Shown here: positions 1,560 to 49,756 of the stretch, piece after piece | Layout of the letters: the number at the start of each line of letters is the position of its first letter | Numbering within the stretch: position 1 is the first letter of the stretch | NCBI GenBank assembly: GCA_033809755.1 | Contig: JAPXLB010000002.1 | Span: forward strand, 64,486-128,485 | Direction of reading: 5' to 3' | From: Lentimicrobiaceae bacterium | Lineage (GTDB): Bacteria; Bacteroidota; Bacteroidia; Bacteroidales; UBA4417 | DNA length: 64,000 nucleotides | The notes under the pieces: generated by a model | What the model saw: the letters and a program-made list of their open reading frames with translations, nothing else | The model's database searches: none | What the model was told of the DNA's origin: nothing | Made by a program: the position numbers and the translations under genes

Positions 1560-2465
1560 ATGAAACCTACTTTAGTGATTTTAGCAGCCGGAATGGGTAG
1601 TAGATTTGGAGGATTAAAACAAATTGACGCTTTTGGTCCAAACGGCGAAACAATTATCGATTATTCTATATTTGATGCCATAAGAAGTGGATACGGCAAA
1701 ATAGTTTTTATTATCAGAAAACACTTTGAAAAAGAATTTAACGACATCATAATCGATAAGGTGAGAAAACACATCAATGTCGATTATGTTTTTCAGGAAC
1801 TTGACTACTTGCCCGAAGGTTACGTTCTACCTCCAGAAAGAGAAAAACCTTGGGGAACAGGACATGCCGTTTTGTGTGTTAGAAACATTGTTAACGAACC
1901 TTTTACCGTTATCAACGGTGACGATTTCTACGGTTTTGGAGCTTTTAAAGTTATGAGTGATTATTTATCTAATTTAACTGACTCGCAGCAAAACATATTT
2001 TCAATGGTCGCTTATAAGGTTGGTAATACCTTGTCGGAAAATGGTGTCGTATCACGTGGAGTTTGTAATGTTAGTAGCGACGATACTCTTATTTCTGTCA
2101 CCGAAAGAACAAACATAAAAGATTACGACGGAATAATAGGATATATTGACGAAAATGAAAATATGGTTGCTCTGGATTTCGACTCAAAAGTTTCGATGAA
2201 CTTTTGGGGATTTACGCCTTTGTACTTTGACCTCACTCATTCGCTTTTTATCGATTTCTTAGACAAAAACATAAATACTCCAAAATCGGAATTTTATATT
2301 CCAAGTGCAGTAGATTTGCTTATCAAAAGCAATAAAGCATCTGTCAAGGTGCTAACTTCTGACGCCAAATGGTTTGGAGTTACTTATAAAGAAGACAAAC
2401 CTTCGGTTGTAAACAAGATTGGAGAACTTGTCGATAACAAAATTTATCCCTCAAAACTGTTTTAA
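1560..2465 (+). CDS. sugar-1-phosphate nucleotidyltransferase family protein
   Basis: N-terminal LAAGMGSRFGGLKQ, the G-x-G-x-R-x(n)-K NTP-transferase signature, plus a GTGHAV motif. Confidence 0.7.
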   Translation: MKPTLVILAAGMGSRFGGLKQIDAFGPNGETIIDYSIFDAIRSGYGKIVFIIRKHFEKEFNDIIIDKVRKHINVDYVFQELDYLPEGYVLPPEREKPWGTGHAVLCVRNIVNEPFTVINGDDFYGFGAFKVMSDYLSNLTDSQQNIFSMVAYKVGNTLSENGVVSRGVCNVSSDDTLISVTERTNIKDYDGIIGYIDENENMVALDFDSKVSMNFWGFTPLYFDLTHSLFIDFLDKNINTPKSEFYIPSAVDLLIKSNKASVKVLTSDAKWFGVTYKEDKPSVVNKIGELVDNKIYPSKLF

Positions 2466-2474
2466 TAATCAATT

Positions 2475-4736
2475 ATGAATATTAATCTTTTAAAGTTTGT
2501 TTCTATAACTATACTTTGGCTATTTGGTATTAGCTCATTTGCTCAAAACCTAACAATCGTAAAAGATAACAAATCCGATTACGTTATTATTGTTCCTCAA
2601 ACGGCTAGCCAGTCGGATATCACTGCAGCCGAATATTTGCAGGAATATATTTTTAAATCAACAGGGGTGGTTGTTCCGAGTCTGCAAGAAACCGAACAGC
2701 AGAGCCAAAACATAATTAGCATCGGAAATACTTTGTTGCTTAACAAAACAAATAATAAAACCAAAGACAGCTATCAAGAAGATGAGTTTCAAGTATTTGC
2801 CCATAACAACAACTTATATTTTGTAGGTGGTACAGATAAAGGAACTCTGTACGGAGTTATTGAATTTATTGAAAAGTATTTAAACTCGTACGTATTGGCT
2901 CCCGATGTGGAAATTGTAGCTGAGCTCAATGAGATTATTATTCCCGAAAATATTAATTTGAGTGACAAACCCTACAATGTTTTCAGAAACGTAAACGGAA
3001 GATTTGTTGACAACGAAAAGTACAAAAATTGGATGCGTTTGGATAATGTTTACGAAGTTTTCGGAAACAACTACTACGTCCACACATTCAATAACCTTAT
3101 CCCTTGGGAAAAATATTTTAAATTATATCCCGAATTATACGCGTACTACAACAATAAGCATAATCCCACTCAATTATGTTTATCTAATCCTGAAGTGTTA
3201 AACCGAGCAATAACCAAATTAAAACATGAAATGTTTAAACAACCCGACCGTAAATATTGGTCGGTGAGTCAAAACGATAACGACTCTTATTGCAAGTGCG
3301 AAAAATGTACTCGAACGATTGAAAAAGAGGGCAGTCCTTCGGGTTTGCTCCTGCAGTTTGTCAACAAAATTGCAGCCGAATTTCCCGATAAAGTCATATC
3401 AACATTAGCATACAGCTACACTCGCAAAGCCCCGAAATACACAAAGCCCGCTAAAAACGTTCAAATCGTTTTGTGTACTATTGAGTTAAACAGAAGCATG
3501 CCTATTGCCGAAGATCCTTCAAGTGCAAGTTTTGTCGAAGATATAAAGCAATGGTCGGCACTGACCGATAATATTATGATATGGGATTACACAGTCGATT
3601 TTGCTCATTTTTCTTATCCTTTCCCAAATTTGCACGTTTTGCAACCCAACATTAAGTTTTTTAATGAATACAATGTAAAATCTCATTTTCAGCAGACTAA
3701 CACGCTTATAGGGCACGAAATGTCCGAACTTAAAAGTTATTTAATATCTCGTCTCTTGTGGAATCCTGATATTAATTTCGATTCGACAAAACGAGTTTTT
3801 ATTGAGAAATACTTTGGCGATGCGTCAAGCTACATCTTGAAATATGTAAATACTTTAGAAAAAGAACTTCTGAAATCAGGCGAAAAACTCAATATATACG
3901 AGCATCCAACATCGCATGAAAACACCTTATATTCAGAAAAAAATCTGAAATATTACAACAAACTTTTCGACAAAGCCGAAAAAGCAGTGAAAAACAATCC
4001 GTATGTTTATCAACGTGTTAAGGTGGCTCGTCTGCCAATTCAGTACACTGCGATGGAAATTGGTAAAAAGCATTTGCTAGGCAAAAGGGGTTGGTACAAC
4101 AAGAAAAATAACGATTATATTATTAAAGACGAAATGCTTGCTGTACTTGAAGATTTTTACAGCACTTGTAAAAATAATAATGTCAGAAATCTCAACGAAT
4201 CGCGTCTTACTCCAAAGAAATACTACGATATGACTATGCGTTTCCTGCGCATATATACTAAAGATAACCATGCTTTTGAAAAGAAAATAACTTCAACAGT
4301 TGCTGCAAGCACTAAATATTCCAAAGGTGATTTGCAATTGCTAACAAATGGTGTTAGGGGTCCCAACGACTACAACGTACATTGGATAGGTTGGGAAAAC
4401 GAAGACACAAAACTGACTTTAGATTTGGAAAAAAATCTTTCTTTCGATAGCATAATAATTAGTTCAATGTATTATCCGCAAAGTTGGATACTGCATCCGC
4501 AGTCGATAGAGTGTTTAGTTTCGGAAGATGGTATTAACTACACATCTGTCGGCAAATATACGCCGGGATTAATTCAAAAGGAAGAAGAAAACATCAAAGA
4601 CTTCGTTTTTACAGGTAAATTTAATAATATAAAATACGTTAGTTTCGATGTTAAAGGCACGAAAACTTTACCCGATTGGCATTACGCTGCCGGCGGAAAA
4701 TCGTGGTTCTTTTTTGATGAGATTATTATCAAATAA
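2475..4736 (+). CDS. DUF4838-like secreted protein with C-terminal discoidin (F5/8 type C)-like domain
   Basis: Signal peptide. The N-terminus (LTIVKDNKSDYVIIVPQTAS...LYFVGGTDKGTLYGV) is typical of Bacteroidota DUF4838/GH-like proteins. The C-terminal ~150 aa look discoidin-like. Recognised by eye only. Confidence 0.55.
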   Translation: MNINLLKFVSITILWLFGISSFAQNLTIVKDNKSDYVIIVPQTASQSDITAAEYLQEYIFKSTGVVVPSLQETEQQSQNIISIGNTLLLNKTNNKTKDSYQEDEFQVFAHNNNLYFVGGTDKGTLYGVIEFIEKYLNSYVLAPDVEIVAELNEIIIPENINLSDKPYNVFRNVNGRFVDNEKYKNWMRLDNVYEVFGNNYYVHTFNNLIPWEKYFKLYPELYAYYNNKHNPTQLCLSNPEVLNRAITKLKHEMFKQPDRKYWSVSQNDNDSYCKCEKCTRTIEKEGSPSGLLLQFVNKIAAEFPDKVISTLAYSYTRKAPKYTKPAKNVQIVLCTIELNRSMPIAEDPSSASFVEDIKQWSALTDNIMIWDYTVDFAHFSYPFPNLHVLQPNIKFFNEYNVKSHFQQTNTLIGHEMSELKSYLISRLLWNPDINFDSTKRVFIEKYFGDASSYILKYVNTLEKELLKSGEKLNIYEHPTSHENTLYSEKNLKYYNKLFDKAEKAVKNNPYVYQRVKVARLPIQYTAMEIGKKHLLGKRGWYNKKNNDYIIKDEMLAVLEDFYSTCKNNNVRNLNESRLTPKKYYDMTMRFLRIYTKDNHAFEKKITSTVAASTKYSKGDLQLLTNGVRGPNDYNVHWIGWENEDTKLTLDLEKNLSFDSIIISSMYYPQSWILHPQSIECLVSEDGINYTSVGKYTPGLIQKEEENIKDFVFTGKFNNIKYVSFDVKGTKTLPDWHYAAGGKSWFFFDEIIIK

Positions 4737-40116: not shown

Positions 40117-40131
40117 TGGGAATAAATAATT

Positions 40132-40195
40132 AAACCATTAAGAAATTAAGGTTAGTTAAGTACTTAATGATTCTTAATGTCTTAATGGTTCAAAA
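40132..40195 (+). repeat. 64-bp palindromic repeat element, copy 1
   Basis: AAACCATTAAGAAATTAAGGTTAGTTAAGTACTTAATGATTCTTAATGTCTTAATGGTTCAAAA. The termini AACCATTAAG/CTTAATGGTT are inverted repeats, and there are internal CTTAATG iterations. Confidence 0.85.
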
Positions 40196-40204
40196 TAATT
40201 AAAT

Positions 40205-40609
40205 ATGACAAAGAAAGAAGTAACAAATTTATCGTACGAAATTGTCAGTTGTGCCATAAAAGTGCATAAAGAATTAGGTCCGGGTCTATTGGAAAGTGTT
40301 TACGAAAAATGCCTGAAATACGAACTCCAGAAACAAGGATACAGTGTTCAGCAACAGATGTTAGTTCCTGTTATTTATGATACAATAGAGATGGATGTTG
40401 AATTGCGAATAGATTTATTGGTAAACGATTGCGTTGTAGTAGAACTTAAGGCAGTAGAGACAGTCTTGCCTGTACATGAGGCTCAGTTACTTACATATAT
40501 GAAATTGCTCAAAAAACCGCAAGGATTGCTGATTAATTTTCATACGGATAACATTACAAAAAGCATGAAACCATTTGTAAATGAATATTTTAAACAGTTA
40601 AATGATTAA
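40205..40609 (+). CDS. GxxExxY protein (PD-(D/E)XK nuclease-fold family)
   Basis: Contains LGPGLLESVYEKCL (the G-x-x-E-x-x-Y signature) and a D...ELK core (DLLVNDCVVVELKAV). Its 134-aa size is typical for the family. Confidence 0.8.
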   Translation: MTKKEVTNLSYEIVSCAIKVHKELGPGLLESVYEKCLKYELQKQGYSVQQQMLVPVIYDTIEMDVELRIDLLVNDCVVVELKAVETVLPVHEAQLLTYMKLLKKPQGLLINFHTDNITKSMKPFVNEYFKQLND

Positions 40610-40611
40610 AC

Positions 40612-40675
40612 AAACCATTAAGAAATTAAGGTTAGTTAAGGACTTAATGATTCTTAATGCCTTAATGGTTCAAAA
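40612..40675 (+). repeat. 64-bp palindromic repeat element, copy 2
   Basis: 62/64 identical to copy 1 and exactly 480 bp downstream of it. It begins 3 nt after the GxxExxY stop codon. Confidence 0.85.
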
Positions 40676-40726
40676 AATAGTTTTATCAGGGTAAATTCAA
40701 CCAAAAAGTAGAATATTATAGAAAAA

Positions 40727-42589: not shown

Positions 42590-43246
42590 ATGAAGAAAAA
42601 AATTGTATTACTCACATTAATTACACTAGCAATGTTGGCTTGTACTAACAATAAAAAAGACAATAAAAAAGTCAAAGATGTTGAAATTATCACATTACAA
42701 CCATTACAAGAAAACGAAACACTTTGTTATGAAGATGAATTGCGCCGCATTAGCGGTAGCTGGGCTGAAAATTACGACGGATTTATTATTCGGGTTGAAG
42801 CAAAGCGTGAAGATGTAAAATCATTCACAGTTCAAGATGCTACGGCATTTGAATGCGTTGTAGCTGATGCATTGATATTGAGTAATGGTACAAGCAATGT
42901 TCGGACACTTAATGTGTACGACTTAAACTCATGTGATGAATTACTGTCAATTAAAGATAATTTTTCAGGTGAGGTAATGCCTGATGACAATCAGACGGGA
43001 TTTACATTTTATAAATATTCTGAAGATATGCCTATCGTTCAATGGAACGCCCAGACTGGCGAATGGCATGAAACAAACAAAGTGCCGTCCGAACTCTTCA
43101 ACTCAGATTTTCACAATACAATTGAAGAAATTGGCGATAGAGCCTTTAACGGAATGAGATTAGCTGCATTGCAAAAAACTTACGTCAACATAAAGAATAA
43201 AAAAATAAGCTACCTGAACGAATACAAATGGAAATATATCGAATAG
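42590..43246 (+). CDS. hypothetical lipoprotein
   Basis: Lipobox AMLACTN. Confidence 0.5.
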   Translation: MKKKIVLLTLITLAMLACTNNKKDNKKVKDVEIITLQPLQENETLCYEDELRRISGSWAENYDGFIIRVEAKREDVKSFTVQDATAFECVVADALILSNGTSNVRTLNVYDLNSCDELLSIKDNFSGEVMPDDNQTGFTFYKYSEDMPIVQWNAQTGEWHETNKVPSELFNSDFHNTIEEIGDRAFNGMRLAALQKTYVNIKNKKISYLNEYKWKYIE

Positions 43247-47776: not shown

Positions 47777-47799
47777 TTTTAAATAAATAATTTATATTA

Positions 47800-47864
47800 A
47801 GCCATTAAAAAGTTGAGAGTCGTACAGACCTTAATGTCCCTTAATGCCTTAATGGTTCAAAATA
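47800..47864 (+). repeat. palindromic repeat element, diverged copy 3
   Basis: AGCCATTAA...CTTAATGTCCCTTAATGCCTTAATGGTTCAAAA. The right arm is nearly identical to copies 1 and 2, and the centre has diverged. Confidence 0.7.
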
Positions 47865-49680: not shown

Positions 49681-49723
49681 TAGTAAAAAACATCATACTT
49701 CTAAAACACTTATATTATTATAA

Positions 49724-49756
49724 CTTAATGCCCCTTAATGCCTTAATGGTTCAAAT
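49724..49756 (+). repeat. palindromic repeat element, right-arm-only copy 4
   Basis: CTTAATGCCCCTTAATGCCTTAATGGTTCAAA. It shares the 16-mer CCTTAATGGTTCAAAA/T with copies 2 and 3. No left arm is visible. Confidence 0.65.

Follow-up and report, generated by a model that had tools for sequence, protein, structure and literature searches.

A GxxExxY-family nuclease gene framed by two copies of a palindromic word array in a Lentimicrobiaceae genome, and recurrence of the gene-repeat pairing in Bacteroidota

This report concerns a 64,000-nt stretch of DNA (the window; all coordinates are window positions) from contig JAPXLB010000002.1 of Lentimicrobiaceae bacterium, assembly GCA_033809755.1, which carries a small gene of the GxxExxY (PDDEXK_3) family framed by two nearly identical palindromes, here called HP1 and HP2. 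Both palindromes are inverted arrays of 7-nt words. A first-pass annotation of this DNA had associated the repeat with the gene, and the association extends well beyond the window: the same type of palindrome is found at orthologues of the gene in other orders of Bacteroidota, and genomes that bear the gene are enriched in the palindrome motif. On balance, comparison of these sequences makes it probable that the locus is one copy of a widespread element consisting of a nuclease and its cognate repeat, in which the protein would read the words and host repair would spread the cassette.

Results

HP1 and HP2 repeat with a period of 480 bp and differ at just two positions, 40161 (T/G) and 40180 (T/C) (Table 1); the two 64-bp repeats of the first-pass annotation, with their coordinates and both mismatches, were borne out by reading the sequence and by a script. 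A 62/64 match inside 64 kb cannot be chance. Both copies start with AAACCATTAAG and end with CTTAATGGTTCAAAA, and their layout is AAACCATTAAG-AAATTAAG-GTTAGTTAAG-TA-CTTAATGATT-CTTAATGT-CTTAATGGTTCAAAA. The left arm carries three xTTAAG words and the right arm three CTTAAx words, separated by a 2-nt centre; the words are spaced 8,10 on the left and 10,8 on the right. Nine nucleotides (TAATTAAAT) lie between HP1 and the ATG of the gene and two (AC) between its stop codon and HP2, the same within counting convention as the earlier description of an open reading frame (ORF) starting 10 nt after the first copy and ending 3 nt before the second. HP1 folds at -20.9 kcal/mol (z = -5.5) and HP2 at -19.6 kcal/mol (z = -4.4), and in each case 0/200 shuffles were as good.

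Table 1. Features of the window discussed in the text (HMM, hidden Markov model; G543, nearest relative in the same genus).
Feature	Position	Strand	Remarks
HP1, palindrome copy 1	40132..40195	.	64 nt; sequence read and script check
HP1 parts			left-arm xTTAAG words CCATTAAG, AAATTAAG, TAGTTAAG; 2-nt centre; right arm 3x CTTAATG; termini AAACC...GGTTCAAAA
GxxExxY / PDDEXK_3 gene	40205..40609	+	134 aa; HMM, fold model, catalytic set E30, D70, E80, K82, Q94, Y98
HP2, palindrome copy 2	40612..40675	.	64 nt, 62/64 identical to HP1
Segment absent from the syntenic locus of G543	40191..40703	+	leader, gene, HP2, 28 nt
Degenerate full-length gene-less palindrome copy	47788..47862	.	between two lipoprotein genes
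Gene-less single-arm copy	49724..49756	.	three CTTAATG words and GGTTCAAA

The framed ORF is a GxxExxY gene by both TIGR04256 (146.5 bits; cut-off 35) and PF13366 (137.9 bits; cut-off 22), with the name-giving motif read as G27-L-L-E30-S-V-Y33, and it is the only GxxExxY gene copy in the 2.29-Mb genome. An AlphaFold model built from 37 sequences reached a pLDDT (predicted local distance difference test) of 95.8. A fold search with this model returned Cas4 SSO0001 (template modelling score, TM, 0.58-0.60) and lambda exonuclease as the best PDB matches, followed by weaker matches to the Holliday-junction resolvase Hjc and to tRNA-splicing endonucleases, and the model together with these matches places the protein in the restriction-endonuclease-like fold. 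A PDB sequence search with the protein found no relatives, the fold search alone giving some, and the Cas4 matches in PADLOC were weak (E = 1e-4). From its predicted fold, the GxxExxY protein is a minimal Cas4/RecB/lambda-exonuclease-like PD-(D/E)XK core with an intact catalytic set and without an Fe-S cluster, and the conserved RecB/Cas4 motif set makes the enzyme look active. Residues H21, G25, G27, E30, Y33, D70, E80, K82, Q94, and Y98 are invariant across groups of proteins flanked by different word types; a comparison of these word groups yielded four candidate specificity-determining positions (9, 97, 106, 128), a signal too weak for interpretation.

A scan for orthologues with one genome per species gave 80 orthologues, 72-81% identical, in Flavobacteriales, Chitinophagales, Cytophagales, Sphingobacteriales, Saprospirales, and others, at least five orders of Bacteroidota. 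The flanks are rich in CATTAAG/CTTAATG words at nearly all 80 loci, with ATTAAG/CATTAAG among the three commonest flank 6-mers, and complete AACCATTAAG...CTTAATGGTT palindromes often stand on both flanks, now and then as tandem arrays. The 80 loci fall into 37 distinct genomic contexts. Upstream and downstream flanks aligned locally with a score of at least 20 at 47/115 GxxExxY genes vs 8/355 neighbouring ORFs (p = 1e-24). A search for the palindrome motif CTTAAYNNCTTAATGG gave 13 matches at 11 loci in the Lentimicrobiaceae genome and 0 with the reversed control pattern. The motif is present in 49/50 orthologue-bearing genomes, 39 of the 50 having at least five matches (median 8.5, maximum 45; controls 0-1), and these counts include the gene's own flanks; in a 300-genome sample of the phylum only 22 genomes had any match and 4 had at least five (p = 4e-37 against the orthologue genomes; p = 1e-17 when the comparison was restricted to genomes of the same class). 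Among 45 genomes of the own genus, more than one match occurs just in this genome (13) and in G543 (6), and one other has a single match. A lack of enrichment near GxxExxY genes had been named beforehand as speaking against the association; the enrichment that we found is strong. The GxxExxY family as a whole is large, with at least 7998 significant matches in a family search.

Other clades of the family are flanked by other words. In same-genus relatives and in Flavobacterium these are CACGAAT, CGCAAAG, CACGGAT, CGCAGAT, CACATAG, CACTAAG, CACAGAG, and CATATAAG. The pairing of clade and word was seen for CATTAAG, CGCAAAG, CACGAAT, and CACGGAT, and was read directly in the flanks for CATATAAG, CACTAAG, CACATAG, and CGCAGAT. 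Below 55% protein identity the flank word spectra have a similarity of about 0.01-0.02, and above 65% of 0.31-0.64. One genome (G128) holds nine GxxExxY paralogues with about eight different flanking words, and in each of three genomes tested a single CATTAAG-type copy is accompanied by more distant paralogues. The CATTAAG clade has two layouts, both of them found at one Flavobacterium locus. In the first (41 loci), to which the window locus conforms, the order is palindrome-gene-palindrome, with right-arm words beside the ATG and left-arm words beside the stop codon; in the second (14 loci) the gene stands between a left arm and a right arm, within one large palindrome.

Across 93 distinct palindromes the word spacing is 8, 9 or 10 nt and the complementarity between the arms is 0.93 in the words and 0.53 in the spacers, compared with 0.59 between unrelated palindromes, which rules out a stem selected as a hairpin. 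The long imperfect hairpin proposed in the first-pass annotation thus stands insofar as folding beats shuffled sequence, but not as a structure-selected stem, since only the words are conserved and complementary. With spacers that are neither conserved nor complementary, the conserved unit is the inverted word array, and this favours recognition of each word by a protein. Within an element the spacers drift but the six words remain alike, which suggests selection on each word. A single genome can hold several word types, each at its own paralogue, so the reader should vary with the element; since the nuclease is the sole protein linked to the element, it is the nuclease that would read the words.

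All 11 motif loci of the Lentimicrobiaceae genome are intergenic. They comprise the two full copies at the gene, a full copy at C3:17650, the degenerate copy of Table 1, and seven single arms, so that nine gene-less loci, full or single-arm, are scattered through the genome. The seven single arms terminate in GGTTCAAA, and their inner side adjoins other heptamer-type tracts. Six single CTTAATG arms (C1:252437, C3:138846, C3:143147, C15:22064, C2:150737, and C9:36621) have a common inner flank (AACAGCTAAAAT and similar) and run on into the tracts AGCCAAG x4, TTGCACA, and CGTGTTG; they have the look of gene-less composites in which words from different families are combined. A terminator scan found no terminator-like site and no T-tract at the palindromes, and Rfam gave only sub-threshold matches to miRNA models.

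The earlier annotation had pointed to empty sites in relatives as a check, and such sites were found in the genus and in Flavobacterium. The motif scan of the genus led to G543, about 91% identical at the locus, where the order is the 128-aa gene, one CATTAAG palindrome, two unrelated ORFs, and the TPM gene, with no GxxExxY gene. The alignment with the window ends at 40190, the last base of HP1 CTTAATGGTT, and restarts at 40704. The extra ORFs of G543 (L219, which is G543:C83, reverse strand 2175-3202) encode 216 aa and 92 aa; the former has no Pfam match and carries a C-terminal CxxC...CxxC-like motif, and the latter has a weak sub-threshold Bro-N match. They are a different cargo adjoining the same palindrome end. 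A DNA synteny search for the window locus in 40 relatives returned nothing.

In 150 Flavobacterium genomes the gap between hemA and hemC holds no palindrome, a solo palindrome, arrays, or the gene with palindromes. Where there is no palindrome, hemA and hemC overlap (ATAATG). Gene-less gaps (among L128-L144, where palindromes of either word type occur) contain a solo CATTAAG palindrome (L131), truncated or half copies of it (L137, L148), or variant palindromes in 1, 2 or 6 tandem copies in which the words of both arms are all concertedly CATATAAG; the internal units of the six-copy array are without the first left-arm word. The closest relative of one gene-bearing species (hemA 96% identical) holds variant palindromes instead, and the genomes with variant palindromes carry elsewhere a 41-43%-identical paralogue framed by CATATAAG arms. 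Both the hemA-hemC gap and the G543 locus therefore show presence/absence polymorphism at the same site among relatives, a trait shared with homing endonuclease genes. No target-site duplication could be read at occupied vs empty hemA-hemC sites or at the G543 junction.

Tandem copies were found at two loci. At L039 two 100%-identical gene copies form a tandem cassette with a period of 491 bp. At L218, where the protein is 94% identical to that of the window, a 563-bp unit is repeated in tandem and ORF-deleted units keep only ATGACA/GTTAAATGATTAA. These tandem cassettes and the break of the G543 alignment at the palindrome end fit the earlier proposal that the ORF plus one repeat forms a cassette-like unit; as to the accompanying proposals of an insertion with target duplication or of a recombination site, neither a target-site duplication nor recombination chemistry could be read. 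L218:289-1100 is a rearranged version of the island in the window, in which a homologue of ORF 42590-43246 and what is left of the 128-aa gene precede the gene, and its repeated unit runs palindrome, ORF-deleted stub, truncated palindrome, ORF.

In a tree of the proteins, those of Flavobacterium group together with the hemA-hemC and amylase-locus copies mixed, several cross-family sister pairs are well supported, and one Flavobacterium protein clade is present at two different loci. The tree thus indicates that the element was probably relocated and transferred occasionally over long times.

The neighbours of the GxxExxY gene are lipoprotein-like, TPM-domain or unknown ORFs. Promoter and terminator scans found neither a promoter-like nor a terminator-like signal in the HP1-ATG interval. 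The upstream neighbour is co-oriented with the GxxExxY gene at 125/146 loci, which fits read-through expression and is only moderately above the usual level for adjacent bacterial genes. The window gene is probably expressed via read-through from the upstream gene.

Discussion

In the explanation that we favour, the GxxExxY protein itself would recognise the 7-nt words and would cut at or beside the arrays, most likely when these are single-stranded or extruded, and host recombination or repair would then copy, delete or duplicate DNA at the array ends by homing-like copying, unequal recombination or centre-break repair. Under such cutting and repair, gene and palindrome would be gained, lost, and tandemly duplicated as a cassette at the palindrome ends, gene-less palindromes would pile up, and each protein clade would retain its own word.

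Several observations weigh against this explanation. A PD-(D/E)XK hydrolase cannot rejoin DNA, and any mobility must therefore borrow host functions. The covariation of gene and arms could have its source in simple co-inheritance of linked DNA, and the motif counts of gene-bearing genomes are raised by the gene's own flanks. Palindromes without a close gene are found in four Flavobacterium-like genomes (G204, G243, G339, and G455, with 6-21 matches) and probably in G543 (6 matches), where the absence of the gene was seen at the syntenic locus. Close genomes show no movement: G543 has several of the gene-less copies in orthologous places (about 91-95% identity), and in ten strain-level contigs (98-100% identical) HP1, gene, and HP2 stand unaltered, down to the two mismatches between the copies. 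Within a genome of the F. johnsoniae group, the upstream-downstream identity (69-84%) is no higher than the between-species identity of upstream or of downstream flanks (65-96%; 67-96% for upstream flanks); the two flanks there diverge like ordinary orthologous DNA, which argues for long stable residence, not for ongoing homogenisation.

A strict dependence of the palindromes on a close gene is ruled out by the four hit-rich genomes without one, whose nearest paralogues are 41-53% identical and accompanied by CATATAAG or CACATAAG words. Continuous homogenisation of the flanks is likewise ruled out for the F. johnsoniae-group loci by their upstream-downstream identities. If flanks are not continuously homogenised, the near-identity of HP1 and HP2 (97%, vs 69-84% in the F. 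johnsoniae-group loci) would mark a comparatively young event. The ten strain contigs all carry both copies, so the event is older than the roughly 2% divergence of the strains; related strains without flanking repeats, which the first-pass annotation had listed as evidence to the contrary, were not among them. Its suggestion of a recent duplication or insertion is thus reasonable as a comparatively young event (or a conversion), with "recent" to be taken as relative, since the event predates the strains. The HP1-gene-HP2 arrangement is now fixed in this species.

Of the competing explanations, an Ssn-like host function survives best, although we hold it to be unlikely. The Ssn/NTS (SRM) systems consist of GIY-YIG site-specific single-stranded DNA (ssDNA) nucleases flanked by their own hairpin repeats (PMC11893778). 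A GxxExxY nuclease of this kind would cut word-bearing ssDNA, and the arrays would serve the cell and not the spread of an element, for example by modulating incoming conjugative or transforming DNA or by processing replication intermediates; the flanking copies would regulate or accompany the gene. In both systems the nuclease is encoded by a small stand-alone gene with a clade-matched hairpin repeat on either side, further copies of which lie elsewhere in the genome, and the association came to light through the same gene-flank logic. The strong purifying selection on the protein (orthologues in different orders are 72-81% identical, and a genome has one copy for each specificity), the stable residence in the Flavobacterium hemA-hemC gap, and the fact that Cas4, the nearest fold, is an ssDNA nuclease also favour a host role. 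However, the motif copies are few (5-45 per genome) compared with the hundreds of NTS reported in Neisseria, the gene is patchy even between sister species, and the tandem duplication, the ORF-deleted units, and pseudogene fragments resemble the turnover of selfish elements. The enzymes differ as well, being GIY-YIG cd10448 in Ssn and Cas4/RecB-like PD-(D/E)XK here by sequence and fold; the repeats described here are iterated words with non-complementary spacers; and what is known of the GxxExxY system comes from sequence.

We regard as improbable a system acting at the RNA level, in which the protein would bind or cleave RNA hairpins framing its own ORF inside host operons, so that the message is excised or stabilised or polar effects downstream are limited, in analogy to the intervening sequences of 23S rRNA with small ORFs. 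The co-oriented upstream neighbour at 125/146 loci, the frequent location within operons such as hemA-hemC and hypD-hypE, the HP1-ATG interval free of promoter-like or terminator-like sites, and the inclusion of RNA endonucleases in the PD-(D/E)XK fold, with tRNA-splicing endonucleases among the weak fold matches, are all compatible with it. The palindromes speak otherwise: their spacers are non-complementary, so no stem is selected beyond the words, and gene-less copies lie in convergent and divergent intergenic regions in both orientations. There is also no Rfam match, the top structural relatives are DNA nucleases, and the co-orientation exceeds that of adjacent bacterial genes only modestly.

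It is equally doubtful that the gene is passive cargo, with the arrays moved or kept by another enzyme or by host recombination and the covariation reflecting co-inheritance alone. The palindrome-rich genomes without a close gene would be expected in that case, as would the retention of palindromes at orthologous sites in G543, with other ORFs beside the palindrome at this locus, and the fusion of single arms to unrelated heptamer tracts. An unlinked enzyme, however, must read all of about eight word types per genome, each of which stands by its own paralogue; the active site is intact across all word groups; and the presence of the motif is tightly tied to that of the gene. Last, a coincidence of a generic REP-like (repetitive extragenic palindromic) or terminator hairpin with a local 480-bp duplication, gene and repeat being functionally unlinked, is very hard to credit even though unequal recombination can make direct repeats around any gene and the palindromes are located at gene 3' ends, because the pairing recurs in 37 contexts and several orders with clade-specific words, no terminator-like T-tract is present, and the genome-level association has p ~1e-37.

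The explanation by a word-reading nuclease and host repair can be set against several known systems. In REP/REPIN-RAYT systems the enzymes are REP-associated tyrosine transposases (PMC3733652). As here, a single-copy gene is flanked by its own palindromes, gene-less intergenic copies are dispersed, the repeat is clade-specific, and inheritance is mostly vertical with patchy loss. In contrast to RAYT, the present protein is a PD-(D/E)XK hydrolase and not an HUH Y1 transposase, with no cut-and-rejoin chemistry, and it matches only PF13366/TIGR04256, so an IS200/IS605-like HUH Y1 identity does not apply; the arms hold three phased 7-nt words, where RAYT has a GTAG/CGTC-tagged stem, and the copies are fewer. 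The system thus resembles both REP/RAYT and Ssn/NTS, yet lacks the enzyme that defines either of them.

The best-matching structures, Cas4 (SSO0001, PDB 4IC1) and lambda exonuclease, share with the protein the RecB-type motifs E...D...ExK...QxxxY. Unlike Cas4, the protein has about 134 aa and only C16, C36, and C76, so that no four-Cys Fe-S cluster can be formed, and the TM is about 0.6; the flanking genes examined gave no sign of a CRISPR link, with no dedicated screen made. The ends of transposons such as Mu (L1-L3/R1-R3) and Tn7 (TnsB sites) carry multiple phased binding sites. The present unit is similar in that both ends of a gene-carrying segment bear inverted arrays of some three short repeats, protein-binding in the transposons and putatively so here. 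It differs in lacking a DDE, tyrosine, serine or HUH transposase and in its words of just 7 nt, and a search of its junctions for a target-site duplication found none. Among the HMM matches of the ORF there was no transposase gene of an insertion sequence or a miniature inverted-repeat transposable element (MITE) within the unit. Integron cassettes with attC sites are similar in that each unit is a promoter-less ORF with one imperfect palindrome, in the co-oriented upstream genes, and in tandem cassettes. The present units, by contrast, are solitary in 37 unrelated contexts and apparently not arrayed beside an integrase, for which no search of the window was made, and their palindrome consists of iterated words, not of R''-L''/L'-R' as in attC. 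The system is probably no integron cassette array, matches no known RNA family, and is not Cas4 proper.

A full-text literature search gave no description of a GxxExxY function or of the gene-repeat pairing; GxxExxY/PF13366 is rarely named there, and never for its function. GxxExxY/PDDEXK_3 is a huge family without an assigned function, and the finding of an own phased 7-nt array with each clade leads to the testable idea that its members are sequence-specific nucleases whose substrates are written beside the gene. If this is true, a class of intergenic palindromes and heptamer-type repeats would be explained in Bacteroidota and probably in other phyla, a third enzyme superfamily would join the theme of "nuclease plus own repeat" known from RAYT and Ssn, and the family would supply a set of small nucleases whose specificities have diversified in nature. 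For annotation, such palindromes should not be labelled terminators or MITEs by default. More speculatively, and at low probability in our view, the very large GxxExxY family could consist of minimal nucleases that read words, each clade recognising a 7-nt word of its own in phased arrays, and nucleases and arrays together would be a new class of transposase-less selfish or persistent elements spreading via nuclease-triggered host repair, to which the TIGR02436 genes with tandem-heptamer arms described below would form a parallel class.

Additional Observations

Outside the window, the Lentimicrobiaceae genome has five four-helix-bundle genes of TIGR02436 ("23S rRNA IVS protein"). Four of them (C4:43011-43328, C11:79220-79534, C6:13885-14208, and C11:82353-82670) are accompanied by inverted tandem-heptamer arrays, and the fifth (C5:9717-10022) is without arrays. 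Examples are GAGTGAT-type repeats upstream with CACCCAC-type repeats downstream, and more than 15 copies of ACTCATA. These arrays seem to parallel the GxxExxY word arrays, with a period of 7.

Upstream of HP1, 13 nt (TAAATAATTAAAC; 40117-40131) are similar, save a 4-nt indel, to the 13 nt with which the ORF ends ahead of HP2 (TAAATGATTAAAC; 40596-40611). The likeness may go back to a cassette copy that once lay upstream of HP1, and chance is possible in such AT-rich DNA. One further strain-level contig (L215; JGI 3300060959) joins the 3' flank of a DUF3298-like gene, the single-arm site near 49714, to the right arm of HP1. The window segments concerned are 49714-49755 and 40152-40193, which share TTA alone at the junction, 3-4 nt off the palindrome centre. 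Its source is more likely a rearrangement close to the palindrome centre than an assembly chimera, and the junction could represent a tandem duplication or a circle junction of a 9.6-kb segment.

Contigs of metagenome-assembled genomes (MAGs) may be mis-binned, and this is probably the case for three orthologue loci whose labels stand beside Bacteroidota-type contexts: L087 (Bordetella parapertussis MAG), L050 (Balneolales), and L118 (Sphingobacterium thalpophilum MAG). The context of L087 is nearly that of Chitinophaga L055 and uncultured-Bacteroidetes L062, and L118 is like the Flavobacterium loci. Within hydrogenase-maturation operons, the cassette stands between hypD and hypE in L055, L062, and L087 and after hypE in L070 and L096, which gives two insertion points within one operon.

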